Sequence record: NC_041937.1
Strand: one strand, 5' to 3'
Source of the DNA: Escherichia phage V18
DNA length: 64,000 nucleotides
Shown here: positions 2,999-62,168 of the stretch, one piece after another
Layout: the number at the start of each line of letters is the position of its first letter
How positions within the stretch are numbered: position 1 is the first letter of the stretch
The notes under the pieces: model-generated
Database searches by the model: none
Told to the model about the DNA's origin: nothing
The model's input: only the letters and a program-made list of their open reading frames with translations
Position numbers and translations under genes: made by a program

Positions 2999-5596
2999 TT
3001 AAAGGTACAATCCACGGTATTGAGCATAAAGGCCTAGACCGCGAAGGATTTCGCCAGAGTGATAGCCAACCGGGTCAGAAACTGCCCAGCAGCCGTTTAA
3101 AATATTATCCCCATTAATGAAGTGGTGCTTTTGCAGTAGCTTCACACAGGCTTCCACAACAATATCTATTTGAGGTATTGTCTCTGAATACCCGCAAAGA
3201 CCTAGCCAGCAGCAACCTGCAAGCCATTCACCTACCACCCACATCCTGTCTCCTCTGTCCTGATAAGAATATCCCCCAGAGGTGTTAAAGTCTGTAGGCA
3301 GATTTCCTGAATGAGATGACTGGAATCTGTTGAGGAACCATGCCCATTTCTGGCAGAACAGGAATAGTCTTTCATCAACAGGTTCTTTATGTTTCTTGAG
3401 CTCATATATTGTGCGGCACGCAGCAACAAAAGATCTTGACTGGAGCTTAGAGTTATCTACCATCTCCCACCAACCAGTCAACCCTTCATTACCTCTTTGC
3501 CATACATAACGTGAGGCAACTGGACCCTCTGTCTTAAATGTATTATTATACCAGACTTGAGCGTCATACAGAAAGCCTATTGTATTTGACAATCTATGGC
3601 GATCTATGTTTTCTGCACCCATGCAGTAGACTGCTGGGTATTGCATGCCAGGGTAGGGCCAATTTGGCTTTTCCTCTAAGAGATAGTTTTCCTTATCTAT
3701 CATCTTTCCGGCAGGGAACACACCCGGTGTGTGCCTGTATGCACCTTGCTTGTAGTTTCTGACATAGCAATCTCCAACCTTAGCGGTTGATTCTGTCTTG
3801 CTTGCCATCCATACACTAAACCAGATTAGATAAGCATCCCTATCTGCAATATAGAATTGCGGCAGCGTGTTGACGCAATATAGATCAAACAAGCCATTAC
3901 CTATCTGCCTGTCGCTTAGGCTGAAATCTACAGAGGTGAGCCCCTTAGGATTAGCAAAGAAAGGTTTAATCTCTTCTTCGGTGTGGTGAGGTTGTGTCGG
4001 ATCTAGTTTGAAATCTCCTAGAGTAAGAGTTTCTGTTATCCATTGTCCATTAGTGGCATATAGATCAGCATACCATAACCACCTGTCTTTGTCAAGAAAT
4101 TTGACCCTTACCATCTCATCATCTGATCGATAAGTTACTGAGTTTAAAGAAACCTCTCTTCCAAAATTGAAAGTTACTTTACCTCTTGCTATATTACAAC
4201 GGGTGAAGTTGTCAGAGTGGTTGTAAATGTCGGTATCATACTGCATACTGACACTAGCGCCACCGCTCACGGCAATGTTTTCCTCTTTAGGTAAGAGATA
4301 CGGATTACCGTCTTTACCAACCACCTCTACAAAATCAGTAACCTTGGCAACTGTTTCTGTTACCTCTGCCCCTCCAAAAGGGACACCTATTCTGTACTGT
4401 TTTTTGTTATTGTTACCATCATTAAGGATGAAATGTGGTTGGAACAGAACCCCTTCTCCTCCGAAATTCATAACAATTTCAGCATCTCTGCCTATTTTGT
4501 ATGTAGTCCCTTTTTGGATTATTTCGCAAGGCTGGCGTGCGTTCATTCTAAAATTGATATATCCGTCACTATCCCTACTCATGACAGGTACTGTTCCTGC
4601 AACTAGACAAGTGCCATCTGTGAACGGGGCCTTAATCAACGTGGTCTTTCTGAACAGCTTGTCGTAGGCATTTATATCACTAAAATTAAGCAACTTATTG
4701 TAAGACTGCTTAAACGCGGTGTAATACTTTTCCTCACCTGTCAAGGTATAGAGTTGATAGCAAGCGTCACACCACATCTCTTCCCCGTCTAACTCTGTGG
4801 CTTGATTGTCTGCAACCACATTTATAGGATTTACAATTACAGGGGATCCAGCAGGTATCACCGATCCACCCTGCTCTTGTGGCAATCTCACACAGTAGGT
4901 CACCTTGTGGCTGCCTGTAACACCCTTATCCTGCAGTTGGATTGTGCCGAACTCTGCAGACGTATGACCACTATCGGCTATGCTACCGTTGGCCCAATAG
5001 CGGTTACCATCCCATGCTATATACCACTCAACCCACCAACTTAACCCGGATGTTGTCCAATCTGGGTTAGCATCTGTGCCACCGTAAACATCAGAGTCTA
5101 CAGTGTTTCTTCCTAATACACCGTTATATGCTTGAAATGCCTTGTCCAGGTATTCCCCCCATGTCGGAGATCCAGCTGGGATTTTTCCTCTACCATTGGT
5201 AAAAGATACCACCACATCTTTAAACCCACCATGTGATGGAACCCCATCTGTGGATAGAGGGTAGTGGGACAATCTTTGCATTTTACTTTCTACTGCATAT
5301 GCACCCAAAAGATGACTATTGTAAGCTTCCCAAGCATCTTTTGCCCTATCCAAGTAGAAATCGCTTTTCGATGCCCTGTATGCTTCAATGTACCCCAGAA
5401 TCAACACAGCTTGGGACTCATGCATTGCCCAATCATTATTTATCTTATTACCTGCCCACCCTGCAGCTATAAGACCATCAGGGTTTACTAGCTTATTTTG
5501 TGTGGGAGTGTTGGTAATACCTGTGTTGTTATCGAGGCACTTCCTGTGCCCCTCAATCATCTGAAATACGTTATCAATGTTGTGTTGAATACGCAT
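2999..5596 (-). CDS. putative tailspike / receptor-binding protein with possible polysaccharide-degrading domain
   Basis: 865 aa immediately downstream of a fibre-anchor ORF (stop and start 1 nt apart); N- and C-terminal regions look like alpha/alpha-barrel glycosidase folds; function unverified. Confidence 0.45.
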   Translation of the reverse strand: MRIQHNIDNVFQMIEGHRKCLDNNTGITNTPTQNKLVNPDGLIAAGWAGNKINNDWAMHESQAVLILGYIEAYRASKSDFYLDRAKDAWEAYNSHLLGAYAVESKMQRLSHYPLSTDGVPSHGGFKDVVVSFTNGRGKIPAGSPTWGEYLDKAFQAYNGVLGRNTVDSDVYGGTDANPDWTTSGLSWWVEWYIAWDGNRYWANGSIADSGHTSAEFGTIQLQDKGVTGSHKVTYCVRLPQEQGGSVIPAGSPVIVNPINVVADNQATELDGEEMWCDACYQLYTLTGEEKYYTAFKQSYNKLLNFSDINAYDKLFRKTTLIKAPFTDGTCLVAGTVPVMSRDSDGYINFRMNARQPCEIIQKGTTYKIGRDAEIVMNFGGEGVLFQPHFILNDGNNNKKQYRIGVPFGGAEVTETVAKVTDFVEVVGKDGNPYLLPKEENIAVSGGASVSMQYDTDIYNHSDNFTRCNIARGKVTFNFGREVSLNSVTYRSDDEMVRVKFLDKDRWLWYADLYATNGQWITETLTLGDFKLDPTQPHHTEEEIKPFFANPKGLTSVDFSLSDRQIGNGLFDLYCVNTLPQFYIADRDAYLIWFSVWMASKTESTAKVGDCYVRNYKQGAYRHTPGVFPAGKMIDKENYLLEEKPNWPYPGMQYPAVYCMGAENIDRHRLSNTIGFLYDAQVWYNNTFKTEGPVASRYVWQRGNEGLTGWWEMVDNSKLQSRSFVAACRTIYELKKHKEPVDERLFLFCQKWAWFLNRFQSSHSGNLPTDFNTSGGYSYQDRGDRMWVVGEWLAGCCWLGLCGYSETIPQIDIVVEACVKLLQKHHFINGDNILNGCWAVSDPVGYHSGEILRGLGLYAQYRGLYL

Positions 5597-27855: not shown

Positions 27856-28410
27856 TTACTCCCCGCTGTCAATAGCAAGACTCATTGCAATACGGTATGC
27901 CTCTTCTAATGGTAAGAGTCTCCCCCACACATCCCAACCGACATCAAACTGCCTGCCAAACAACTGCTGTGTGGTTCCGTGAGCATGACCGAACAGTTGG
28001 ACCGATCCGTGAGGCTTTCTGTTCCACTTTGCAAACTGGTAATGGCTCATACAGATCAAATTCTTGTTGTGGCGAAGCTCGTAATAATCTACAACCTCAT
28101 GACCGAACTCTTTCATAATTCTGACAGTCGTCCTTGTGTCATGGTTACCACGAACAAGAATAATATGTCCGTTCAACATATTTAGAACATCTGGGAGCAA
28201 TTTGTTAATATTCTTATCATTAGTGCACGCAATATCTCCTAAGTGAAACACAGTGTCTGCAGGTGACACAACAGAGTTCCACTTGGTGATGATCCCCGCA
28301 TTCATACTGTCAAGATTGTGATCATACTGAGATCTGTGTTTTTGACATGAGTCAAACTCCATGACCCGCTGGTGGAGAAAGTGTGTGTCGCTTGTTACAA
28401 AGTATTTCAT
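27856..28410 (-). CDS. calcineurin-like metallophosphoesterase (putative polynucleotide 3'/2',3'-phosphatase)
   Basis: Start at ATG 28410 (MKYFVTSDTHFLHQ) with GAGGA RBS; motifs DTHF, HLGDIA, RGNHD, GHAH. Confidence 0.65.
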   Translation of the reverse strand: MKYFVTSDTHFLHQRVMEFDSCQKHRSQYDHNLDSMNAGIITKWNSVVSPADTVFHLGDIACTNDKNINKLLPDVLNMLNGHIILVRGNHDTRTTVRIMKEFGHEVVDYYELRHNKNLICMSHYQFAKWNRKPHGSVQLFGHAHGTTQQLFGRQFDVGWDVWGRLLPLEEAYRIAMSLAIDSGE

Positions 28411-28417
28411 ACATTCC

Positions 28418-28828
28418 TCATTTAAGTTTAATGCAGTTTTTAAGCTGGCGTTCCATACGATCCACAACCCTGTCTGGAACATCATGAATGCTTTTACTAC
28501 CATGGCGGTTTTCAACCACGATTACGGTATAACTATACCCATGACTGATCGCCATGTCAATATATTCTTGCACATATTTTTCTTTTGTAAATGTATTACT
28601 TACCACGATACGGTCGTATCCCATACGCATCATATCTTCTACGTTATCTTTGCACCATTTTGCTGCAAGTGTTACTTTACTTGCATCCCAGTTGTAATTT
28701 CCATCATCGTCGTACCAGAACATGTCGTTCTCAAAATGTGGATACAGACCTTCTAAAGATAGCGCACTTGCCAGTGTTGATTTGCCAGACCCTGGTAGAC
28801 CACGCACGATATATAGCATTTTAGACAT
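28418..28828 (-). CDS. P-loop polynucleotide kinase-like protein
   Basis: Start at ATG 28828 (MSKMLYIVRGLPGSGKSTLA) with GGAGG RBS; resembles T4 Pnk kinase domain; stop overlaps phosphatase RBS. Confidence 0.6.
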   Translation of the reverse strand: MSKMLYIVRGLPGSGKSTLASALSLEGLYPHFENDMFWYDDDGNYNWDASKVTLAAKWCKDNVEDMMRMGYDRIVVSNTFTKEKYVQEYIDMAISHGYSYTVIVVENRHGSKSIHDVPDRVVDRMERQLKNCIKLK

Positions 28829-28856
28829 AGTAATCCTCCGTTTTAATTTCAACGAT

Positions 28857-28885
28857 AGTATACCTAACTGTTTTGTTAATTTCAA
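28857..28885 (-). promoter_or_regulatory. sigma70-like promoter for kinase/phosphatase operon
   Basis: Minus strand TTGAAA-N17-TATACT in divergent intergenic region. Confidence 0.4.
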
Positions 28886-28928
28886 GTGTTGACACTAGGT
28901 TATTTGTGTGGCAGGATAGACTGACAAA

Positions 28929-29606
28929 ATGACAAATGAGGAACGTATGATGAAGTATTTTAATGCAGACGACCTAGTTGACAAAGGTCTTGTAACCAGC
29001 AGATATTACACAGATCTTGGGTTAAAGATCTATAAATATGCCAGAAAAGTATTTTACAACAATTTATGGCATTTGTCCCCTCGTTTACTGGAGTGCCGAG
29101 GCATTGTTGTCGGTAATGAAGGAAATGTTGTGGCATGGCCCTTCACAAAAGTGTTTAACTTGGGAGAAAACTCCACCAACCTGTCTGACAATAAGCTTGT
29201 GACGGCGGTAGAGAAAAAGAACGGATTCCTTGGTGTGGTATCATCTCATAAAGGTGAACTATTGTTCTCAACAACCGGATCTCTTGATTCTCCATATTGT
29301 AACCTCGCAAAGGAAACCATCCAGGAGCAATGTGGTAATTTAGATCTTATCAAGAAGGTTATGGGCAATGAAAACATGACATTCATGTTTGAAATTTGTC
29401 ACCCTTCAGATCCGCATATTGTTCAGGAAGATCATGGCGCATATTTGATAGGTTGCAGGTATAATGATTCTGGAATAATGCTACCAGAGGCAGCTTTAGA
29501 TGGGATTGCCAAATACCTTGGTGCAAAACGTCCTCACACTGTGCGTGAAATTCCGTTCAGCTATGCAAAAGAATTGGCTGCAGAAACAAGAGGTGAAGGT
29601 ATATGA
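28929..29606 (+). CDS. putative RNA/DNA ligase-like nucleotidyltransferase
   Basis: 225 aa; candidate motif I lysine in VEKKNGFLGV (KxNG); divergent from kinase/phosphatase operon; assignment tentative. Confidence 0.45.
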   Translation: MTNEERMMKYFNADDLVDKGLVTSRYYTDLGLKIYKYARKVFYNNLWHLSPRLLECRGIVVGNEGNVVAWPFTKVFNLGENSTNLSDNKLVTAVEKKNGFLGVVSSHKGELLFSTTGSLDSPYCNLAKETIQEQCGNLDLIKKVMGNENMTFMFEICHPSDPHIVQEDHGAYLIGCRYNDSGIMLPEAALDGIAKYLGAKRPHTVREIPFSYAKELAAETRGEGI

Positions 29607-29863
29607 TTCGTAAGCCTTACTATCCTTATGATCTGCAGCTGAAGATTAAGTCTCCATACTATCTGGCACGGAAGGCCGTAATGAGGGGTAAAGCTTGGAA
29701 GATTTGGGATGATGATATCTTTAAACGTGTTGACGAAGAGTTTTACGGCATGGTAAACTTCATTCGTAGCAATTACACAGAAGATGTGTGGAACTGCCTC
29801 CTGGAGCAGGAACGCCGTGAGATACTTGACTGCTATTTCCACAACGAGGACTATATGCAATGA
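29603..29863 (+). CDS. hypothetical protein
   Basis: 86 aa ORF translationally coupled to ligase-like gene. Confidence 0.4.
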   Translation: MIRKPYYPYDLQLKIKSPYYLARKAVMRGKAWKIWDDDIFKRVDEEFYGMVNFIRSNYTEDVWNCLLEQERREILDCYFHNEDYMQ

Positions 29864-30042
29864 AGAAGTGGAAAGTTCTTTTTAATCACTCCAGAGAAAC
29901 GTCAAATTATGGGCTCCCAGACGCTATTTGGCTAAAGAATTCCTCCGAGTTTATGGATTTTATTAACGATAATAGAAAGCTCTACAGACGCGTTTCTGAG
30001 TGGCATATGGACAACGACCTTGGAGAGGTGTTCGAAGGGTAA
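29860..30042 (+). CDS. hypothetical small protein
   Basis: 60 aa ORF, start overlaps upstream stop. Confidence 0.25.
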   Translation: MKKWKVLFNHSRETSNYGLPDAIWLKNSSEFMDFINDNRKLYRRVSEWHMDNDLGEVFEG

Positions 30043-52282: not shown

Positions 52283-53329
52283 ATGAATTTAACACCTCGC
52301 AGCACCATGGTACACGGCATGAAAGAAAAACAGAACGGTTTCGAACCTATGAGTAATAAAATGTTTGGTATGCCGGGTGGTATCATGGAAACATACAGCT
52401 ACCCAACACCTGTTGTTGACCACGTTCTTTATATCGACGATTTGGAAGACCTGCAGGATCATATGTCTCGTCTGCAGACGATCCGTATGGCTCAGCCGGA
52501 AGAAAGCATTCGGGTGATCATCAATAGCCCTGGGGGTTGCGTGCACATTGCAATGGCTTATCTACAGGCATTCCGCGAGTCTCAGGCAAGCGTTGTTGCA
52601 CATGCTGAAGGGATGTGCTGCTCTGCGGGAACAATCTTATGGCTGGGTTGTAAAGAACGCACTGTGGCTCCGGACACAGAATTTATGTTCCACTACTATC
52701 AAGGTGGCACTTATGGTAATGGTGTGAACATGAATACTCAGGTCAGCTACTGGAAAAAACGTTTTGAACGCCTGATCGAAAAATACTACGGTGGGGTGCT
52801 GACAGAAGATGAGATCGCATCCATCACAGCTGGTGGTGAAGTGTGGTTGGACGGAGAGGAGCTGGCAGCTCGAACTGGAGCCATCATTCTGGATGAAGGC
52901 AACATACAACGCATCCAGAATGGACAAAAACCTAAAAAGCTTCTGGCAAAAGGTGATGAAGGCGTGTTAGGTGAAGCAGGTCTTCCGGAGATTCACCAGT
53001 GCACCTCTTTAGATGAGCTAGTTCATGCTGTTGAATCTGCGAAAGCGGTTGGTTCGAAAGGTGATGTTCACACTGTGTTCCTGAATCTGCAGATGGAAAG
53101 TGGTGAGACCATTAAGATTGCCTTAGGTGAGATTACCTCAGAAGATCTGCAGCGATTCTCTGTCGTTGAACTTCAAGACATTCTGTCCCAATTGAAGACA
53201 ACCCTGAACGGCGGTGAAGAGGTTAAGGTAAAAGATAAGACTCGCAAGCGTCTGGTGGACAATATTATTAAAACAGCAAAAGAACTCAATGAAAAAATCC
53301 TGGGTGCAGGAATTGTCGAAGAAGCTTAA
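52283..53329 (+). CDS. ClpP-like (S14 family) serine protease with long acidic C-terminal extension
   Basis: RVIINSPGG, catalytic-Ser context GMCCSAGT, His context FMFHYYQGG; about 150 aa helical acidic tail; terminator hairpin follows. Confidence 0.65.
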   Translation: MNLTPRSTMVHGMKEKQNGFEPMSNKMFGMPGGIMETYSYPTPVVDHVLYIDDLEDLQDHMSRLQTIRMAQPEESIRVIINSPGGCVHIAMAYLQAFRESQASVVAHAEGMCCSAGTILWLGCKERTVAPDTEFMFHYYQGGTYGNGVNMNTQVSYWKKRFERLIEKYYGGVLTEDEIASITAGGEVWLDGEELAARTGAIILDEGNIQRIQNGQKPKKLLAKGDEGVLGEAGLPEIHQCTSLDELVHAVESAKAVGSKGDVHTVFLNLQMESGETIKIALGEITSEDLQRFSVVELQDILSQLKTTLNGGEEVKVKDKTRKRLVDNIIKTAKELNEKILGAGIVEEA

Positions 53330-53380: not shown

Positions 53381-53914
53381 ATGACTTGTGCTAGAAAACC
53401 TGATGAACAACGTAACGCCTACGATGAGTATGTGACACCGGAGTGGTGTGCAGAAGGGCTGTATGACCTTATTCCGTTCCCAGAAGACTGGACCTACTTA
53501 GAGCCTTGCAGGAATAGTGCCTCAGGTGTGTTCTACTCCCGTATGCCGTTAGGATCTGCATGGGGAGAAATCCAAGAAGGTGTTGACTATCTGAATACAG
53601 AATACAACCATGTTGACTGTATTATCACCAACCCACCATACAGTTTGGCTCGTGAGTTTGTAGACAAGGCGTTGAAAGATGCTGACGTAGTTATTATGCT
53701 TTTGCGTCTTAATTTTCTGGAAAGCAAAGCCAGATTTGAATGGTGGCTTGATAATGCACCTACCACTGTGATCACAATATCTAAGCGTCCATCTTTTCAA
53801 TCAAATGGCAGAACTGACGGGCAAGCATATGCATATTTTGTGTGGGATAAGAAAAACCGTTTAGGCTTGCCGCCATTTATGTGGTTGGCACCACCAGAGG
53901 TAGACCTGAAATGA
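53381..53914 (+). CDS. N6-adenine DNA methyltransferase
   Basis: IITNPPY (motif IV) and YVTPEW; 177 aa. Confidence 0.6.
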   Translation: MTCARKPDEQRNAYDEYVTPEWCAEGLYDLIPFPEDWTYLEPCRNSASGVFYSRMPLGSAWGEIQEGVDYLNTEYNHVDCIITNPPYSLAREFVDKALKDADVVIMLLRLNFLESKARFEWWLDNAPTTVITISKRPSFQSNGRTDGQAYAYFVWDKKNRLGLPPFMWLAPPEVDLK

Positions 53915-54195
53915 AGATGAGTGCTAAGGACAAATTACACCAGTTAGCGCTAAAACGTCCTGTAACGCTCCCTGACGAGCTTAACTCCATTTATGATGCG
54001 ATTGTAGGGGAGATACAAAATAAAGCGTTAGCAGGCTTTCTGGGATGCGGATTTTCGATAAATCTACCCTCGCATCTCTCAGATTACTTCCCGCACATTG
54101 TTGGAGATTTGAGAGCAGGAGGTCTGCAGGTAGATGTTGTTGGCATCTCCCCAGAGAAAAATAACACGGTTGCCTACTTGACAGTAACCTGGTAG
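53881..54195 (+). CDS. hypothetical protein
   Basis: 104 aa ORF overlapping methyltransferase 3' end. Confidence 0.35.
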   Translation: MVGTTRGRPEMKMSAKDKLHQLALKRPVTLPDELNSIYDAIVGEIQNKALAGFLGCGFSINLPSHLSDYFPHIVGDLRAGGLQVDVVGISPEKNNTVAYLTVTW

Positions 54196-54908: not shown

Positions 54909-55142
54909 ATGAAAGTTAAATTTCTTACAGATTTAGGGTACCCTTCCTTGGTTGACTGTGTTGGTAAAATTGTGGAAGCAAAACGGCTATCTGCAAACGA
55001 GAATGTTGTCCTGGTTAAAGGGAAGGATTTACTAGCTGCAGGTGCAGAGTCTGGCAGGATCTCTCCTGATTATATGTATTACCTATCTTTAAGTAATCTG
55101 CCAGAGCGAGGCGGTAAAGGCCTTGAAGTTGTGGAGGAGTGA
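54909..55142 (+). CDS. small acidic protein, MKVK...DL(L/I)AAGA paralogue family member
   Basis: 77 aa; MKVKFLTD ... DLLAAGA ... LEVVEE; paralogous to 57400-57627 and 57617-57871. Confidence 0.45.
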   Translation: MKVKFLTDLGYPSLVDCVGKIVEAKRLSANENVVLVKGKDLLAAGAESGRISPDYMYYLSLSNLPERGGKGLEVVEE

Positions 55143-55238
55143 CAGGTATGCTTCTGATTAACTGGGAAGACCTCTATGGGCCTTTATGGGAAAAGAGCAT
55201 GTATTTAAAATGGTGCGTTAATTTAGGGAGGCCTTCCA

Positions 55239-55358
55239 GTGTTTCAAGCCATGTTTATTGAGATGCTATCTGGGGTATTGTTACTGGTAGCCATCTTAGG
55301 TGGTGCAGTTCTGATGTATAACTATCTTGAAAAAGGAGACAGCAATGGTAAAAAATAA
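55239..55358 (+). CDS. small membrane peptide (39 aa)
   Basis: GTG start after GGGAGG RBS; single transmembrane helix MLSGVLLLVAILGGAVLMY. Confidence 0.25.
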   Translation: MFQAMFIEMLSGVLLLVAILGGAVLMYNYLEKGDSNGKK

Positions 55359-55530
55359 ATCTTTAGAGCAGGCTGAAAACCTTCTCCACGAGCTGGTAAA
55401 GGAGTGGAAAGTTGAATACTCAGATTTTAATGCACGAGAGGGTGAAGATTATTGGCCTACGGAGCGCTCAGAGGGCGAATGGTATCAAGATTTTATAGAG
55501 TGGTTATATCAGACGTGCGATGAGGGGTGA
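55327..55530 (+). CDS. hypothetical small acidic protein
   Basis: 67 aa ORF. Confidence 0.35.
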   Translation: MKKETAMVKNKSLEQAENLLHELVKEWKVEYSDFNAREGEDYWPTERSEGEWYQDFIEWLYQTCDEG

Positions 55531-55991
55531 CGATGTTTGTTAAATATGTAAAAACGTGCCTCAACAGTCTTGGCAGAGAGCATTGGTACACCTTGCTTGA
55601 AAAAGGGGAAATTTTAACAAAATCTGGAAAGATAACTTTTATACATAGTAAAGGTAAAGACCCGTCACGACTTGTTATAGATGATTACGTTACAGGTGTG
55701 ACGTTCGAGGTCTCTGTGGAGAGGTTAATACGCAGAGCTGGCGGCCCTTATGACCGAAGAGAGTATGTTTTCGATTCCGTTACAGAGATGGGGGAGCATC
55801 CGTCTTTAATGTTCAGGATGGTAATCAGAGATATGAGGTCATCTATAGATAGGATTGTAAAGGACATTAAGGAACCTTTTAGAGTAAAAGTTAAGAAGTT
55901 TTTCGATTCTAAGATTAACATACTCGCCGTTGCACTAGGTGTAGTTCAACTTCTGTTAATTTTGCACTATTTTGAACTACTATTTAAGTAG
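55527..55991 (+). CDS. hypothetical protein with C-terminal hydrophobic segment
   Basis: 154 aa ORF; C-terminal ILAVALGVVQLLLILHYF. Confidence 0.4.
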   Translation: MTMFVKYVKTCLNSLGREHWYTLLEKGEILTKSGKITFIHSKGKDPSRLVIDDYVTGVTFEVSVERLIRRAGGPYDRREYVFDSVTEMGEHPSLMFRMVIRDMRSSIDRIVKDIKEPFRVKVKKFFDSKINILAVALGVVQLLLILHYFELLFK

Positions 55992-56053
55992 TAGTTGAGA
56001 TATGGCACAAAGGATGTGCCATAGTGAAATAAACTAAGAAAGAGGTAGAGAGA

Positions 56054-56401
56054 ATGCCAAAGATTAAAACGTTATTACTGTGGGTAACTGTTTTAGCTTT
56101 TATAGGGTACTGGACTTGGGAAACTGAATTAAAAGATATAGGATATACCAGTCTTGAGAGCAAGGCGTGCATTGGCATAACCGATGCGTTCAGGCAAAAT
56201 GCTATGGATCACGAATGTGTTGATGCAGATATAGATGAGAAACTGTCTAAGGACAAAGATTTTTACCATGGGCATGCTTTACTTGATAGTGGTGACACTG
56301 TAGAGTTCTGGTCGTGGTTTCGTGAAGATGGAACAATAAAAACAGCAGTAAAGATCTCTAACAAAGAGTTAATGCTGTTGCAGCAAAAGGAGGCTCAATG
56401 A
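56054..56401 (+). CDS. hypothetical protein with N-terminal signal/transmembrane segment
   Basis: 115 aa; N-terminus LLLWVTVLAFIGYWTW. Confidence 0.4.
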   Translation: MPKIKTLLLWVTVLAFIGYWTWETELKDIGYTSLESKACIGITDAFRQNAMDHECVDADIDEKLSKDKDFYHGHALLDSGDTVEFWSWFREDGTIKTAVKISNKELMLLQQKEAQ

Positions 56402-56685
56402 TCTGGATATCCTATGCTGATGGCACCATGCTGTATACTGCAGGTACCAGATATGAAGTTCAGGAGAACGATAAAAAATTTATCGTAAAAACATTTGACA
56501 AGGACGACAACCTTTTGCTAGAATTGACTTACAAGGTTGGAGAGGTATCCAATATCCAATTGGATTGTGGTCATAAAGATAACCCACTCAAAAAACCTGG
56601 AATAGGCAAGGCTTCAGAAGAACGTTTGTCTCGTATTGCAGAAAGCGTTTCTACACAAAAATCTAAGAAGGGGACTAGAAAATGA
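56398..56685 (+). CDS. hypothetical protein
   Basis: 95 aa ORF coupled to upstream gene. Confidence 0.4.
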   Translation: MIWISYADGTMLYTAGTRYEVQENDKKFIVKTFDKDDNLLLELTYKVGEVSNIQLDCGHKDNPLKKPGIGKASEERLSRIAESVSTQKSKKGTRK

Positions 56686-56750
56686 AAAACTTACGTTTTA
56701 ACACTGGCGCAATGGAAGAAGCAATATTCTAAACCAGGCGGGAGGGTTTT

Positions 56751-56936
56751 ATGAAGCACTATTGCCTGTCTGGTAGAATGGGTACAGATTGTGATTGGGT
56801 TTTCTTAAAACTTGTCAGCATTCGAGAGTTCATCCCAGAGGAAGAGCAAGAAAGCGAGCTGATGTCATGGATCAACCATTACGGTAACACTTTTCGGCAT
56901 GTTAAGGTAGAAGAGTTGCCAAGCGAGGCTGATTGA
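56751..56936 (+). CDS. hypothetical small protein
   Basis: 61 aa ORF. Confidence 0.35.
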   Translation: MKHYCLSGRMGTDCDWVFLKLVSIREFIPEEEQESELMSWINHYGNTFRHVKVEELPSEAD

Positions 56937-56938
56937 CT

Positions 56939-57028
56939 ATGATTGCATCAATATTAACGTTTATGGGTGGCGTGGCATTCGGATTCATTGTTTGCCTGTT
57001 TATAGTGATTATGTCTATGCGAGGCTGA
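56939..57028 (+). CDS. small membrane peptide (29 aa)
   Basis: MIASILTFMGGVAFGFIVCLFIVIMSMRG; coupled between flanking ORFs. Confidence 0.25.
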   Translation: MIASILTFMGGVAFGFIVCLFIVIMSMRG

Positions 57029-57031
57029 ATT

Positions 57032-57403
57032 ATGAAACTTTTTGAGTGGTTTAAAAAGTTTAAATATAAAGCTGTAGCCATCGTGCCGTGGTCAATTCAG
57101 TGGGTTGATGAAGGTGGTCTACCAATACCTGGTGACAAAGATACTGGGTACTGGATTATGATGGAGAACGGGTTTGGAAAGCGAAAGTATACGTGCACAA
57201 ACTCTACTCGATCTGCCACTAACTGGTCTAAATTCTACTGGGGAGCCAACGAGTGGGGAAGATACGCCACCAAATCAATGGCACTTATTGGTATAGCAGA
57301 GTACATTGCAGCCAGAGATAGGGTTGGAGACACTTATTACTATACTGCGGACGATATTCGTAACAGTGTTTACGTCCCACAACCACCTGATGGAGACCGT
57401 TGA
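57032..57403 (+). CDS. hypothetical protein
   Basis: 123 aa ORF. Confidence 0.4.
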   Translation: MKLFEWFKKFKYKAVAIVPWSIQWVDEGGLPIPGDKDTGYWIMMENGFGKRKYTCTNSTRSATNWSKFYWGANEWGRYATKSMALIGIAEYIAARDRVGDTYYYTADDIRNSVYVPQPPDGDR

Positions 57404-57627
57404 TGAAAGTTAAAGTTTTAGATTCAAGCTTCTATATTGGTCAGGAGCCCTTAGTGGGGAAAGTGTTTACTGCTGTCCCTAACGAAGATTACCCCGACCT
57501 TTTAAAAATAAAAGGGGCAGATCTTATTGCCGCTGGTGCATCTCATGAATGCTTTGACAGTCAGTGGACCTACAACTTTGCCCTAGGTGAGGATGTAGAG
57601 ATAGTGGAGGACGATCATGAAGGTTAA
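57400..57627 (+). CDS. small acidic protein, MKVK...DLIAAGA paralogue family member
   Basis: 75 aa; MKVKVLDSSFYIGQ ... GADLIAAGA ... EIVEDDHEG. Confidence 0.45.
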   Translation: MMKVKVLDSSFYIGQEPLVGKVFTAVPNEDYPDLLKIKGADLIAAGASHECFDSQWTYNFALGEDVEIVEDDHEG

Positions 57628-57871
57628 AATTCTTGATTCTAACGTCTACTTGGGACAATCCTTCCTGAAGGGAAAGGTAGTTCCTGCGGTATACTTTGAA
57701 GGGTTGCCGTGGGATGATCCTGTGCGGCAACATCACAGTTATGTAGGCCACAACGTAGTGTTTATCTTAGGATCAGACCTGATCGCTGCTGGTGCACCGG
57801 AATATTATTTCGGGGAAGAATCCTATTATGCCTTTGGGGCAGGGTCAGATGCAGATATTGTAGAGCTGTGA
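57617..57871 (+). CDS. small acidic protein, MKVK...DLIAAGA paralogue family member
   Basis: 84 aa; MKVKILDSNVYLGQ ... GSDLIAAGA ... DIVEL. Confidence 0.45.
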   Translation: MKVKILDSNVYLGQSFLKGKVVPAVYFEGLPWDDPVRQHHSYVGHNVVFILGSDLIAAGAPEYYFGEESYYAFGAGSDADIVEL

Positions 57872-57883
57872 TGGGTAACCGTT

Positions 57884-58279
57884 GTGAAAAATAAACTGTT
57901 CAAAGTTACAATGAAAATTCGCGGAGCTTGGAGCGTAAAGCAAGGGCGTATCCCAGAATTTGAGAAAGACTTCTACGTAGTCTCCACCTCGGAGGAGGCT
58001 GCATGCTGGCAGGCTGGCTATGCCTATGCAAGAACCTGGTACGAAGGATACCAGACTGGGGGCTATGACGGAGAAATTATCAGCAAGGGTGTGGAAGAAA
58101 TTAATGTGTTGACAAGTAAAAATTTTGTTATAGTGCATCCAGATTCCAGAGTGAAGCATTACTGGAATGCCAGAACAAAAACTTGGACACCGTTTGCAGA
58201 TTCTGCTACACCACTTTTAAACCAAAAAGCTCTTGACTCTGCCCCGAGCTACGGGGTTGTTGAAGAAAAGCTAGACTGA
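57884..58279 (+). CDS. hypothetical protein, paralogue of 60089-60484
   Basis: Shared C-terminal segment (V/M)(V/R)HP.S ... YW ... WTP with ORF 60089-60484. Confidence 0.4.
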   Translation: MKNKLFKVTMKIRGAWSVKQGRIPEFEKDFYVVSTSEEAACWQAGYAYARTWYEGYQTGGYDGEIISKGVEEINVLTSKNFVIVHPDSRVKHYWNARTKTWTPFADSATPLLNQKALDSAPSYGVVEEKLD

Positions 58280-58296: not shown

Positions 58297-58587
58297 ATGA
58301 TGGATTTAGTTCTGAATATTGATAACGCAGGGGAGTTTAAAGACGATGGTGTAACAAGCATTGACCAACCATGCTCTGCCAAGATTGACTCAAAATGGGC
58401 CTACAAGTTTGACGGAGAGATCTTCGCAAATGATGAGAAGGTTGTAGATGCTGCAGCCATTTTGAACGCTCTAGGGTACGACCCTGTGAATTCTTTGATC
58501 AAGGATCCTGTTGAGTTTGCAGAGTATGTTCGAAAAATGGCAGATCTTGCTGTAGATATTTTAGATACTATCGATAATAAGCTGTAA
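58297..58587 (+). CDS. hypothetical acidic protein
   Basis: 96 aa ORF. Confidence 0.4.
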   Translation: MMDLVLNIDNAGEFKDDGVTSIDQPCSAKIDSKWAYKFDGEIFANDEKVVDAAAILNALGYDPVNSLIKDPVEFAEYVRKMADLAVDILDTIDNKL

Positions 58588-58593
58588 AAACTG

Positions 58594-58622
58594 TTGACAC
58601 AACGCTTCAGATTTAGTATCAT
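58594..58622 (+). promoter_or_regulatory. sigma70-like promoter upstream of HPF-like gene
   Basis: TGTTGACA-N17-TATCAT. Confidence 0.5.
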
Positions 58623-58671: not shown

Positions 58672-58992
58672 ATGCAAATTGAAATCACTGGCAACAATGT
58701 AGAAATCACAGAAGGTATGGTATCTTTTATTTCCCGCAAAATGTCCAAGCTGGAGCGTTTACATCCCTCTGTCAACTATGCACGTGTGAGTGTAAAAGTT
58801 GAAAATGATCACCAGGAAGTTATGGCGTTCATTTTTGACAATTCTGGAAAAGAAGTTATTGCCAAAGCTAAAGGCAGTGATGCTTACGAGGCAACTGACC
58901 GTATGGTAGATGTTGCAGCACGTCAGCTGGCTAAATGCGGTGGAAAGAAAGGTAAGGGGAAAGGCAAAGTAAAGATTGACTTTGGAGAATGA
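58672..58992 (+). CDS. ribosome hibernation promoting factor / RaiA (YfiA) family protein
   Basis: MQIEITGNNVEITEGMVSFISRKMSKLERL ... YARVSVKVE ... AKAKGSDAYEATDRMVDVAARQLAK matches short HPF/RaiA pattern; own promoter and AAGGA RBS. Confidence 0.65.
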   Translation: MQIEITGNNVEITEGMVSFISRKMSKLERLHPSVNYARVSVKVENDHQEVMAFIFDNSGKEVIAKAKGSDAYEATDRMVDVAARQLAKCGGKKGKGKGKVKIDFGE

Positions 58993-59129: not shown

Positions 59130-59399
59130 ATGAAAATTAAATTATTCAAAACTGAGCTGGCAGACAAAAACTGTGGACTGGTTGAAGGCATGATTGTTGA
59201 AGCACAACCAGTGGACTATATGAAGGTGGTTCGTGATGCCCTAGGTGAAGGTTTTGATCTGATGGAGCCAGCTCTGCGAGAAGATGTTATCGAGATGGCT
59301 AAAAAGCACACACCTGAAGGTTTGGTGGTGTTTGTTGCACCGGGTAACGGAGAAGAGTTGATTGTAACTCCGGATGTGTATGAGATTGTAGAGGAATAA
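59130..59399 (+). CDS. small acidic protein ending YEIVEE (paralogue family B)
   Basis: 89 aa; MKIKLFKTE ... YEIVEE; similar architecture to 60561-60821. Confidence 0.45.
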   Translation: MKIKLFKTELADKNCGLVEGMIVEAQPVDYMKVVRDALGEGFDLMEPALREDVIEMAKKHTPEGLVVFVAPGNGEELIVTPDVYEIVEE

Positions 59400-59490: not shown

Positions 59491-59670
59491 ATGATTGTTT
59501 ATTTTAAAACTTCAGGTGGATACCCTGATTCTCAAAGCTTGATCGGAAAAACGTGCACAGCATACTCACCTCTTGATGAGGAGGTAAGCGATATTCTACG
59601 AAATATGTATCGGATTGACCCCCAAGAAGCTTTGATCAAAACCTTGTATTTGTCAAGGGCTCAGATATGA
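59491..59670 (+). CDS. hypothetical small protein (59 aa)
   Basis: MIVYFKTSGGYPDSQ... ORF not in track. Confidence 0.3.
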   Translation: MIVYFKTSGGYPDSQSLIGKTCTAYSPLDEEVSDILRNMYRIDPQEALIKTLYLSRAQI

Positions 59671-59757
59671 AGTCTTTGGGAGCATTCCCTGAAGCAGATG
59701 ATGATGCCGTTTATTCGTTCATGACTCCTTTTGAAGCTATGGTTGTTGGGTGATAAT

Positions 59758-59949
59758 ATGAAAGTACGCTTTATTGGTGAAACAATTCCTGTGCATCTCC
59801 GGTCTCCTGAGGATTCTGCAGATCTTGCATCTCAAAAGGCGAGAGGTTATGATAAGAAAGTAACCTCAACCGATGTAGTGCTTGAGGCTACTAGCTACCT
59901 GACCCTGCTGCATTCTTTAATCATTATGGGTACTATTTCAGCAACCTGA
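59758..59949 (+). CDS. hypothetical small protein
   Basis: Start placed at ATG 59758 (MKVRFIGETIP) within track ORF 59731-59949. Confidence 0.35.
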   Translation: MKVRFIGETIPVHLRSPEDSADLASQKARGYDKKVTSTDVVLEATSYLTLLHSLIIMGTISAT

Positions 59950-60092
59950 TGAATATCGGTGAGCTTGTATTTATTAGTGGTGGAGAAATTGTTAGCAAGC
60001 TCGGTGGCGATCCAGATGTCTTTCATGAAACCTGTCCTTTTGCATTTGTGGTAGGTTCAGATGTGGAAGTTATTGAGGAGGTGCGGTAATGG
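59949..60092 (+). CDS. hypothetical small acidic protein (47 aa)
   Basis: MNIGELVFISGGEI ... VEVIEEVR; coupled to flanking genes. Confidence 0.3.
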
Positions 60093-60484
60093 TAAGCCTA
60101 TACCGTGTCGAGTATAGCTCGGATACTGTATACAACGTAAGAAGCAAAGATCGCAGCGACAGAGTGCAAGAAATGTATGTTCTTGCCGACAGTCCGTTAT
60201 CTGCAGCGTTCAAGGCAGGGGCTCTTGCATCTCGTTGGAAATTTGAAGGTGGATCTTTCTATGAAGAAACCCTTGAAGATTCTGTTGTTATTTCTTCTGT
60301 AGAGGTTTCAGATGACTACGAAGGGAAAAAGTTCGTAATGCGGCACCCACACAGCAATATTGCGTACTACTGGGACGTTCTGAACAACGAGTGGACCCCA
60401 GATCTTCAGAAGGCTACTGTGCTAACACCGTTTTTGGCAGATAAGTTCCCACCAGAAGGTAATTTATCTGCACTGTTTCAGTAA
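60089..60484 (+). CDS. hypothetical protein, paralogue of 57884-58279
   Basis: 131 aa; shared C-terminal HP.S ... YW ... WTP segment. Confidence 0.4.
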   Translation: MVSLYRVEYSSDTVYNVRSKDRSDRVQEMYVLADSPLSAAFKAGALASRWKFEGGSFYEETLEDSVVISSVEVSDDYEGKKFVMRHPHSNIAYYWDVLNNEWTPDLQKATVLTPFLADKFPPEGNLSALFQ

Positions 60485-60560: not shown

Positions 60561-60821
60561 TTGATGAAGATTAAATTGAAAAACCTTGAAACGGCAGAGA
60601 TTCAGGACGGTGTTGATTTCCGTTCTAAAGATGGTGACATCTTAGAGGTAAATATTCCAACCTACGATCTGATCAAAGGTTTTGGCAACGTCCCCGAGGA
60701 AGGTATCGCAGACGTTCTTCTAATGTTAATCGTTAGTGGGACAGTGTTCTTGGGTGAAGGTGAGAACGCTATTGCAATCCCAAGCCATTTTTATGAAGTA
60801 GTTGACGAAGAGGTGCTGTAA
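60561..60821 (+). CDS. small acidic protein ending YEVVDEEVL (paralogue family B)
   Basis: 86 aa; MKIKLKNLE ... YEVVDEE; promoter 60503-60531 upstream. Confidence 0.45.
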   Translation: MMKIKLKNLETAEIQDGVDFRSKDGDILEVNIPTYDLIKGFGNVPEEGIADVLLMLIVSGTVFLGEGENAIAIPSHFYEVVDEEVL

Positions 60822-61172
60822 ATGAAAGTAGAAATTACTGGTTTTGATGTGAATGCGGTTCCGGAAGATATTTTAGCTAAACTTCCGGAAGGTTTTGGTA
60901 ACGGTGTTGTGGTGGATGCTGTTCCTCCTACCAAAGACATTCTGCTGCAGTATGGTGTAGCAGAGGAAGATGTCGATAAAGTTCTTACAATGATGGCAAT
61001 CGATCGTGTTGTCGTTGTTAAAGGTCTCGATAATTTTGAGAGTGATCCCCTGATTATTCGTGGAGATGACTACAAAATCATCGATAATGAAGGCCAAGAG
61101 TTCTATGAACCTTGTGCAGAAGATATTCTTAACTTATTACTGGAAGCAGGCACCGAAGAGGAGGACGAATAA
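60822..61172 (+). CDS. small acidic protein
   Basis: 116 aa; MKVEITGF ... acidic C-terminus EAGTEEEDE. Confidence 0.45.
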   Translation: MKVEITGFDVNAVPEDILAKLPEGFGNGVVVDAVPPTKDILLQYGVAEEDVDKVLTMMAIDRVVVVKGLDNFESDPLIIRGDDYKIIDNEGQEFYEPCAEDILNLLLEAGTEEEDE

Positions 61173-61501
61173 TGAAGATTGACCCGTTACTGAAGGCTCG
61201 TGCAGAAAAAGCGTACACCATTAAGCTGACCACCCTGGTTCCTGCTTGTCATCCGGATGTAGGTTGGCCCGAAGGTCTGGTAGAGGGGACTGTAACAGCC
61301 GCATACCTTCCTAACATCAAATACCTTATGGAAATCTTAGAGATGGATGAGGAAACTGCAGAACAGTTCCAGTTGGATATGAAACAAAGTGGGACTTTGG
61401 TTATTCACGGGTGGTATAATACTAAAGATGCAGAAGACCCTCTGGTAACTTCTAATCTGGCATATGAAATCTTAGGGCCTTTGAACCTGGGGGAAGACTA
61501 A
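61172..61501 (+). CDS. small acidic protein
   Basis: 109 aa; ends AYEILGPLNLGED. Confidence 0.45.
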   Translation: MKIDPLLKARAEKAYTIKLTTLVPACHPDVGWPEGLVEGTVTAAYLPNIKYLMEILEMDEETAEQFQLDMKQSGTLVIHGWYNTKDAEDPLVTSNLAYEILGPLNLGED

Positions 61502-61788
61502 TGAAAGATCTGGTTAAGATTAAGATTAAAGATACCAATGGAGAACTCAGCCATTTTGGAATTAATGATGGTGACGAGCTGATCGCACACTTGCCTACCA
61601 AGGAAGTTGTAAGCAAAGCGGTTGCCGGAGAAGAAGCTGCAATGCAGGCTGCAGGTGTGGATGAAAACTATGTAGCCATGTGCATGTGCCGAGATCAGGT
61701 TGTTCTGTATAAAGCGTATCGACCAAACGGAGCCACGGAGTGGCTTGTATTCCGACCTGAAGGATATGAAATCTTAGAGGCACTATGA
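61501..61788 (+). CDS. small acidic protein
   Basis: 95 aa; ends EGYEILEAL. Confidence 0.45.
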   Translation: MKDLVKIKIKDTNGELSHFGINDGDELIAHLPTKEVVSKAVAGEEAAMQAAGVDENYVAMCMCRDQVVLYKAYRPNGATEWLVFRPEGYEILEAL

Positions 61789-61877
61789 TAAATCTTGCCA
61801 AGGTTGCAATGGTCCTGCTAATTATTTGCTGGTCAGTAACCTTAACACTGTGTCTTGTATTTCAGTAAGGTGCTTAT

Positions 61878-62075
61878 ATGAACATCCTGATGTGGGTTGT
61901 AGCAGTGGCGTTTGTTGCATGTTTTTGCTGCTGGGTTGCGGTGAGGATTTCTGTAGCTACCTTCGGAAGTTGGGGTTCTCAGAGTGGGATATTAATATCC
62001 TTTCTTTTCGCAATGAAACAATCTCAGCCGCCCTGCTCTGTAAGAAATTCAAGTGGGAACCTTGTGAGGTCATGA
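61878..62075 (+). CDS. small membrane protein (boundaries uncertain)
   Basis: N-terminal helix MNILMWVVAVAFVACFCCWVAV; overlapping ORF 61826-62140 has a plausible C-terminal half in another frame. Confidence 0.3.
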   Translation: MNILMWVVAVAFVACFCCWVAVRISVATFGSWGSQSGILISFLFAMKQSQPPCSVRNSSGNLVRS

Positions 62076-62168
62076 ACTATCTAAGAACGGGGGATATCCC
62101 TGAAAGATTTAAAAAAGTTCTTGACGGCAAGGATAAATGATAGTATAGTGACTAACAAGAGGTGAGGA

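Follow-up and report, generated by a model that had tools for sequence, protein, structure and literature searches.

A 64,000-nucleotide (nt) stretch of the genome of Escherichia phage V18 (NC_041937.1), here called the window, carries a family of small, mostly acidic proteins that we refer to as family A. An earlier note, made from the letters of the window alone, had reported three paralogous open reading frames (ORFs) at 54909-55142, 57400-57627 and 57617-57871, and all three were found at these coordinates. Their membership stands. The count was too low, because two further genes, A5 and A6, also belong. In V18 the family comprises five paralogous genes, of which three are intact and two carry frameshifts:

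A1: 54909-55142, plus strand; 77 amino acids (aa), intact; orthologue of rV5 gp122/ORF127, with an AGGAGG Shine-Dalgarno sequence upstream.
A2: 57403-57627, plus strand; 74 aa, intact; rV5 gp135/ORF140, with an ATG start.
A3: 57617-57871, plus strand; 84 aa, intact; rV5 gp136/ORF141, with a 14-aa insertion in the beta2-beta3 loop.
A5: 59491-59753, plus strand; 1-nt deletion after 59630; 87 aa and intact in relatives (rV5 gp142).
A6: 59758-60089, plus strand; 1-nt deletion after 59894; 110 aa and intact in relatives (rV5 gp143).

The start of A2 is most likely the ATG at 57403 rather than the TTG at 57400; GGAG precedes the ATG, and relatives annotate a gene of 225 nt. Ribosome-binding sites are recognizable for A1, A2 and A3. 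A2 and A3 are adjacent and, as had been noted, overlapping; they share 11 nt, read in different frames. The acidic C-terminal codons of A2 (IVEDD; last codons GTGGAGGAC) supply the Shine-Dalgarno sequence of A3 (GGAGGA; 57608-57616), and that of B2 (60073-60081), the gene following A6, is formed by Glu/Asp codons of the acidic A6 C-terminus (IEEV). The acidic tails double as the Shine-Dalgarno sequence of the next gene, so that conservation of the tail and translational coupling are entangled at the DNA level.

A BLASTP comparison, with all 533 window ORFs of at least 35 aa as the search space, placed the similarity of A1-A3 far beyond chance and established the three as true paralogues. A2 and A3 are 42% identical over 83 columns (e-value 5e−14), A1 and A2 are 31% identical over their full length (e-value 2e−6), and A1 matches A3 with an e-value of 4e−3. 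Unrelated window ORFs scored 0.25 or worse against them.

A 46-aa ORF at 59949-60089 matched a profile of A1-A3 (e-value 1e−4). Reading the DNA and aligning it to relatives identified A5 and A6. A5 is present in V18 as a 59-aa ORF (59491-59670) followed by an out-of-frame C-terminal half, while A6 is split into 59758-59949 and 59949-60089, its stop overlapping the B2 start (TAATG). Intact 87-aa and 110-aa coding sequences are found in Gotham, A51.2, rV5, ECP26, S127 BCL3 and EdH4. A profile built from remote homologues only, with A5 and A6 excluded, recovered the intact forms with e-values of 1e−6 (A5) and 3e−6 (A6) in the 533-sequence search space. Both deletions are private to V18. The A5 deletion is shared by 0/106 phage records (best match 99.2%, differing by one gap) and the A6 deletion by 0/111 (best match 99.3%, likewise one gap). 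An exact look-up among ~15 billion proteins found the truncated 59-aa A5 and 46-aa A6 products (V18_00141 and V18_00142) on a single contig, that of phage V18; the A6 orthologue cluster has 194 members, mostly 110-aa forms. The A5 deletion shortens a T-run (TTTT to TTT) and the A6 deletion lies outside any homopolymer. Programmed frameshifting was considered and rejected, as the gaps are absent from every relative and neither GAAGC^TTTGA nor ACTAG^CTACC is a slippery heptamer. The deletions may be real pseudogenization or errors in the deposit. The remaining gaps in the 9-kb comparison are in frame or compensated, bar one. This uncompensated 1-nt gap, at ~61959 relative to Gotham and A51.2 and around the ORFs 61826-62140 and 61878-62075, may be another frameshift private to V18.

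The earlier note had recognized no homology to a known family. PHROG 5009, whose function is unknown, is matched end to end by A1 (e-value 8e−36), A2 (2e−38) and A3 (5e−32), covering positions 1-74 of the 74-position profile in A1 and A2 and 1-69 in A3. A5 matches PHROG 13920 and, weakly, 5009 (1e−4). A6 matches 13661 and has no direct match to 5009. PHROGs gives no function for these entries and keeps the three apart; our profile searches unite them, so that 5009, 13920 and 13661 represent the same family as A1-A3, A5 and A6. The family is already catalogued as PHROG 5009 and its relatives, and every record seen labels its genes hypothetical. A1-A3 have no Pfam match at e-values up to 1, NCBIfam yields only far-sub-threshold noise, and a profile search of Protein Data Bank (PDB) sequences gave nothing significant (best e-value 0.16). 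The hidden Markov models (HMMs) of PADLOC matched none of A1-A3, the prophage copy P0027 or the remote member P0043 at e-values up to 0.1. Characterized inhibitors, such as the Ocr, ArdA, Gp2, Gam, Acr and Tad/Gad families, were not matched in Pfam, PDB sequences, PDB folds or annotated BFVD entries, and no dedicated anti-defence library was searched.

A word-indexed search returned 36 clusters at 90% identity, nearly all of them rV5-like. Remote homologues came from an exhaustive HMMER search of 1.84 billion representatives, which found 75 proteins at e-values up to 1e−3 that bear the same motifs. These are mostly stand-alone proteins of 63-88 aa with the consensus MKVKLLNDGGY...G.ELI.AGA...Y.F...EVIEE. 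Several chains hold two or three tandem copies (P0037, P0042, P0061, P0087, P0093), and a few members have short Cys-rich or acidic tails. The sole recognizable fusion partner among the longer homologues is the uncharacterized domain DUF3310, in P0078. The 2833-aa repeat protein P0038 was dismissed as a false positive.

Family A is confidently predicted to be a stand-alone domain of ~70 aa that folds as an SH3-like beta-barrel of five strands plus one short helix. The AlphaFold2 model of A2, made from a 30-sequence alignment, has a mean predicted local distance difference test (pLDDT) score of 93 and a predicted template modelling (pTM) score of 0.80. Its strands, at 2-5, 21-23, 33-37, 56-61 and 65-69, make up the five antiparallel strands of a small barrel, closed or partly open, and the helix (38-43) bears the G-x-D-L-I-A-A-G-A motif. 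In BFVD, Foldseek matched the model only to uncharacterized small phage proteins, from CM1, Cronobacter CS01, Citrobacter Merlin, RB49, Sf20, ZCKP1 and others. The top match (TMq 0.79) is an 87-aa protein of Shigella phage CM1 which, judging from its length and organism, is probably the A5 counterpart.

Conserved positions, judged over 81 family sequences, are M1, K2, V3, K4, L6, Y11, G13, G19, A24, G38, L41, G45, A46, Y57, F59, E66 and E69. The shared motifs that had been pointed out in the three ORFs (MKVK-x-L, G-x-D-L-[IL]-A-A-G-A and an acidic V-E C-terminus) are conserved throughout this set; in the predicted fold they map to beta-1, the sole helix and beta-5, and thus are not low-complexity matches. 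Two loops vary in both sequence and length, beta2-beta3 (4-26 residues) and helix-beta4 (7-16 residues). The distinguishing insertions of A3, A5 and A6 all fall in the former.

The A genes are functional protein-coding genes in this lineage and are under purifying selection. The ratio of nonsynonymous to synonymous polymorphism (pN/pS), computed over six or seven orthologue sets, is 0.11 for A1, 0.08 for A2, 0.12 for A3, 0.09 for A5 (a value from relatives) and 0.08 for A6. By comparison, it is 0.09 for a neighbouring homologue of a ribosome hibernation factor and 0.04 for B2. The earlier note would have been refuted if unrelated small ORFs shared their motifs through chance or low complexity. 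This is extremely improbable and we reject it: the significant full-length alignments among A1-A3, the common PHROG, the remote homologues with the same motifs, the confidently predicted common fold and the purifying selection all oppose it, and nothing in its favour was found.

Small SH3-like beta-barrels are among the closest known systems; they include SH3, the KOW domains of Spt5, NusG and L24, PsaE and the C-terminal domain of retroviral integrase. Barrels of the KOW, Sm or Sso7d-like kinds that bind nucleic acid could control how phage or host RNA is transcribed or translated. For family A this is an improbable role. The paralogues have isoelectric points (pI) of 4.1-5.4, with a median of 4.5 over 54 remote single-domain members, and the conserved motif has no basic residues. 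No Pfam KOW domain (NusG/Spt5/L24) or Sm family was matched, nor was any Pfam SH3 family, including the canonical SH3 domain (SH3_1 and relatives). The description of the proteins as acidic fits A2 (pI 4.2) and A3 (pI 4.7) well and A1 (pI 5.4) only mildly; A1 has a net charge of −1.5 and the other paralogues −6 to −10. Family A lies outside the Pfam SH3 and KOW families, every PADLOC family and every characterized inhibitor family in Pfam, PDB or BFVD.

The region from 54.4 to 60.6 kb is 97-98% identical to ~120 genomes of Vequintavirus (rV5-like) Escherichia coli myoviruses. It belongs to the accessory, non-structural part of the phage genome. In rV5 it is part of the transcription unit of genes 82-163, which includes the genes for replication and nucleotide metabolism and has promoters of the E. 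coli sigma-70 type (PMC3606486). Near-consensus sigma-70 motifs occur in V18 at 54178, 56495, 58594, 58976 and 60503; they are only suggestive, as their total count is not above shuffled expectation. The motif at 58594-58622 (TTGACA-17-TATCAT) corresponds to the P144 promoter annotated in rV5 and precedes the ribosome hibernation factor homologue (HPF/RaiA, S30AE) at 58672-58992, in the middle of the block. Eighteen GenBank records (MG0656xx), unannotated and labelled as Campylobacter jejuni phages (C7, C9, A141 and others), are ~97% identical to E. coli rV5-like phages here and are probably mis-assigned hosts or contaminating coliphages.

Two of the A genes are each followed by a member of a second family:

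B1: 57884-58279, plus strand; 131 aa, PHROG 7379; follows A3.
B2: 60089-60484, plus strand; 131 aa, PHROG 7379; follows A6, its start overlapping the A6 stop.

B1 and B2 are 28% identical (e-value 1e−9) and have no Pfam match. Their family is annotated in rV5 as similar to a protein of Listeria phage A118. Since A3 and A6 each precede a PHROG 7379 gene, and B1 and B2 have diverged about as far as A3 and A6 (29% identity), the arrangement suggests that a two-gene A-B unit was duplicated long ago. A2 and A3 form a tandem pair, which in other isolates is reduced to a single 70-aa hybrid whose junction is exactly at the conserved stretch that codes for GADLIAAGA. One such A2::A3 hybrid (P0002) was confirmed in place on a 133-kb contig, between gp134 and B1. 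In P0036 the N-terminus of A3 is fused to the C-terminus of the ORF at 58297. The family thus shows repeated tandem duplication, domain fusion, recombinational collapse (A2::A3) and loss.

In this accessory region V18 itself (129 kb) is a reduced variant, with three segments of its relatives absent from the 6-kb stretch. At the 55180/55181 junction ~814 nt are missing, and with them the gp123 orthologue and most of the ORF after it; at 56705/56706 ~144 nt are missing inside the gp131 orthologue. Loss of ~207 nt at ~57220 has fused the gp133 and gp134 orthologues in frame into a 123-aa ORF (57032-57403). We considered this ORF as a paralogue hybrid and rejected it, since gp133 and gp134 are not detectably similar; it is a plain in-frame deletion. 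The rV5 genome paper nowhere mentions paralogues, duplication or gene families (PMC3606486), and neither it nor PHROGs describes the expansion to five copies, the hybrids or the fold.

Outside the rV5-like phages the family is spread widely and patchily. A tblastn search with a consensus composed from the remote members matched 189 records of cultured phages, all annotated as hypothetical, from T4-like Krischvirus and relatives, T1-like Tlsvirus and relatives, Proteus, Aeromonas and Vibrio phages, and phAPEC8-like phages. The RB49 homologue is ORF073c, in the g38-dam block of ~18 small hypothetical ORFs, and the Tls homologue is gene 04, in the small-ORF block at the left end. An unrelated SU10-like contig (L006) carries two adjacent, overlapping paralogues at 3990-4205 and 4195-4518. 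A conserved gene neighbourhood was rejected, as no neighbour of the prophage, L006 and L007 copies matches any window ORF. The A gene is the only one common to these contexts, so family A moves as a single gene, and the A-B pairing is specific to rV5-like phages. The comparisons show a single mobile gene in small accessory-ORF blocks of unrelated phages and prophages. T4-like phages carry blocks of small early ORFs of unknown function, and large phages carry multi-copy families of small genes. Family A resembles the T4-like blocks in its pattern of duplication and loss, and the RB49 homologue lies in such a block. Unlike lineage-specific small-gene families, it crosses Vequintavirinae, Straboviridae, Drexlerviridae, podophages and temperate mEp phages.

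These contexts bear on a role inside the phage, in which the proteins would be small adaptor or chaperone subunits for the phage's own machinery of replication, nucleotide metabolism or transcription, and the phage partner would differ from paralogue to paralogue. The transcription unit shared with replication and nucleotide-metabolism genes fits such a role, as does the strong purifying selection on all copies. In a 42-kb siphophage a homologue is flanked by a primase-polymerase and an AAA_24/DUF669 replication module. On the other side, the gene moves alone among phages with unrelated replication systems and has no co-conserved neighbour, viable isolates have lost, fused or frameshifted copies, and the prophage copies are far from replication genes. 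We regard a phage-internal role as possible, if rather unlikely.

A1 is closest to the prophage and mEp021 copies (46% identity). In mEp010, mEp021 and mEp-type prophages, A1-type copies occupy the slot between the Q antiterminator and the holin, a classic location for moron genes, from which a lysogen or infected cell would benefit by excluding other phages (superinfection exclusion or defence). The mEp021 paper mentions gp40, gp41 and morons nowhere (PMC11893012). Such a function has little probability in our estimation, given that most family members belong to strictly virulent phages, that only 13/5426 complete E. coli genomes carry the prophage copy and that PADLOC was not matched.

We infer that the family A proteins are non-enzymatic protein-binding modules whose paralogues differ in partner specificity, because they are small barrels in which two hypervariable loops sit on a conserved scaffold, have no catalytic or known-family signature, are acidic, move as single genes, are individually dispensable and occur as tandem genes and domains. 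The strand core and the G-x-D-L-I-x-A-G-A helix would be the constant scaffold, and the beta2-beta3 and helix-beta4 loops, which differ between paralogues, would set the specificity. As the proteins are acidic, the partner would more likely be a protein than a nucleic acid. With expression alongside early or middle genes, the paralogues would each have a host target of their own, either a different protein or a variant of one, which they would bind and modulate in takeover or counter-defence. The paralogues would be individually dispensable, so that copies could be gained, fused and lost.

The most economical role is thus that of an accessory host-interaction factor, for takeover or counter-defence, to which we tentatively give a probability of about 0.4. 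Two observations argue against an arms race and weigh on the other side: the selection is strongly purifying with no sign of diversification, and the prophage copies have a late-operon position. The suggestion that the ORFs are host-takeover or anti-defence effectors is borne out in part. They are reasonable candidates for host-interaction factors, and PADLOC and the characterized inhibitors gave no match. Several small, acidic early phage proteins inhibit host proteins, such as Gp2, Ocr and Gp5.9 of T7. Family A is like them in being small, acidic and dispensable, in having no enzymatic motifs and in its early or accessory location.

A more specific proposal, which we hold to be doubtful, is that family A is an uncharacterized and widespread class of SH3-like inhibitors. 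Its paralogues would neutralize different host factors, e.g., variants of defence or stress-response proteins, through the two hypervariable loops. Coupled copies of the A2/A3 type and the natural fusions of two or three domains would represent hetero-oligomers, and duplication, recombination and loss would have shaped the five-copy array into a compact "specificity library".

One further gene of the block could possibly be a very distant relative of family A:

Acidic ORF: 59130-59399, plus strand; 89 aa; rV5 gp141, PHROG 11868.

Its AlphaFold2 model (pLDDT 90; 5 strands, 3 helices) has the beta1/beta2...beta3/beta4/beta5 order of family A with a three-helix insertion, and two of its six top BFVD matches are also matched by A2. 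Its similarity to family A was not significant by BLAST, HMM (e-value 2.6) or, with orthologues only, hhalign (probability 1.3%). When it was pooled with four neighbouring look-alike ORFs, hhalign gave a probability of 13-19% (P 5e−4). The five acidic ORFs (59130-59399, 60561-60821, 60822-61172, 61172-61501, 61501-61788) have a common layout, "MKIKL...G..EG.v.A...helical stretch...vvv...YEIvEE", and may be a sister family of family A. Their pairwise scores are not significant and each has a separate PHROG; three of the look-alikes are the top non-self phmmer matches of the 59130 ORF among the 533 ORFs.

Upstream of the block are a 348-aa protein (52283-53329) and a 177-aa protein (53381-53914), annotated in phage A51.2 as a putative ATP-dependent Clp protease proteolytic subunit and a putative DNA N6-adenine methyltransferase, respectively. 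Farther away, a 70-aa ORF at 34605-34817 matches only positions 78-145 of a 154-position HNH endonuclease PHROG (phrog_5200) and looks like a truncated homing-endonuclease remnant. The GC skew changes sign at ~28000-30000, from negative before ~28 kb to positive after it, consistent with a switch of transcribed strand between divergent gene blocks.

The majority of genes in a large virulent phage are small ORFs with no known function. Families that turn up in phages unrelated to each other and have been amplified locally make rational first picks in screens for anti-defence, host shut-off and toxicity. Family A is solid yet unsurprising phage accessory-gene biology, and its members are ordinary candidates. 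What were three unexplained ORFs is now a defined domain family, for which there are a confident fold model, a conserved motif that can be mutated and two candidate specificity loops. Natural knock-outs (V18, without functional A5 and A6) and natural hybrids are available, and homologues exist in tractable phages such as the rV5-like BASEL phages, RB49, Tls and mEp021. If a target were found for any of them, hundreds of hypothetical proteins would be annotated at once.

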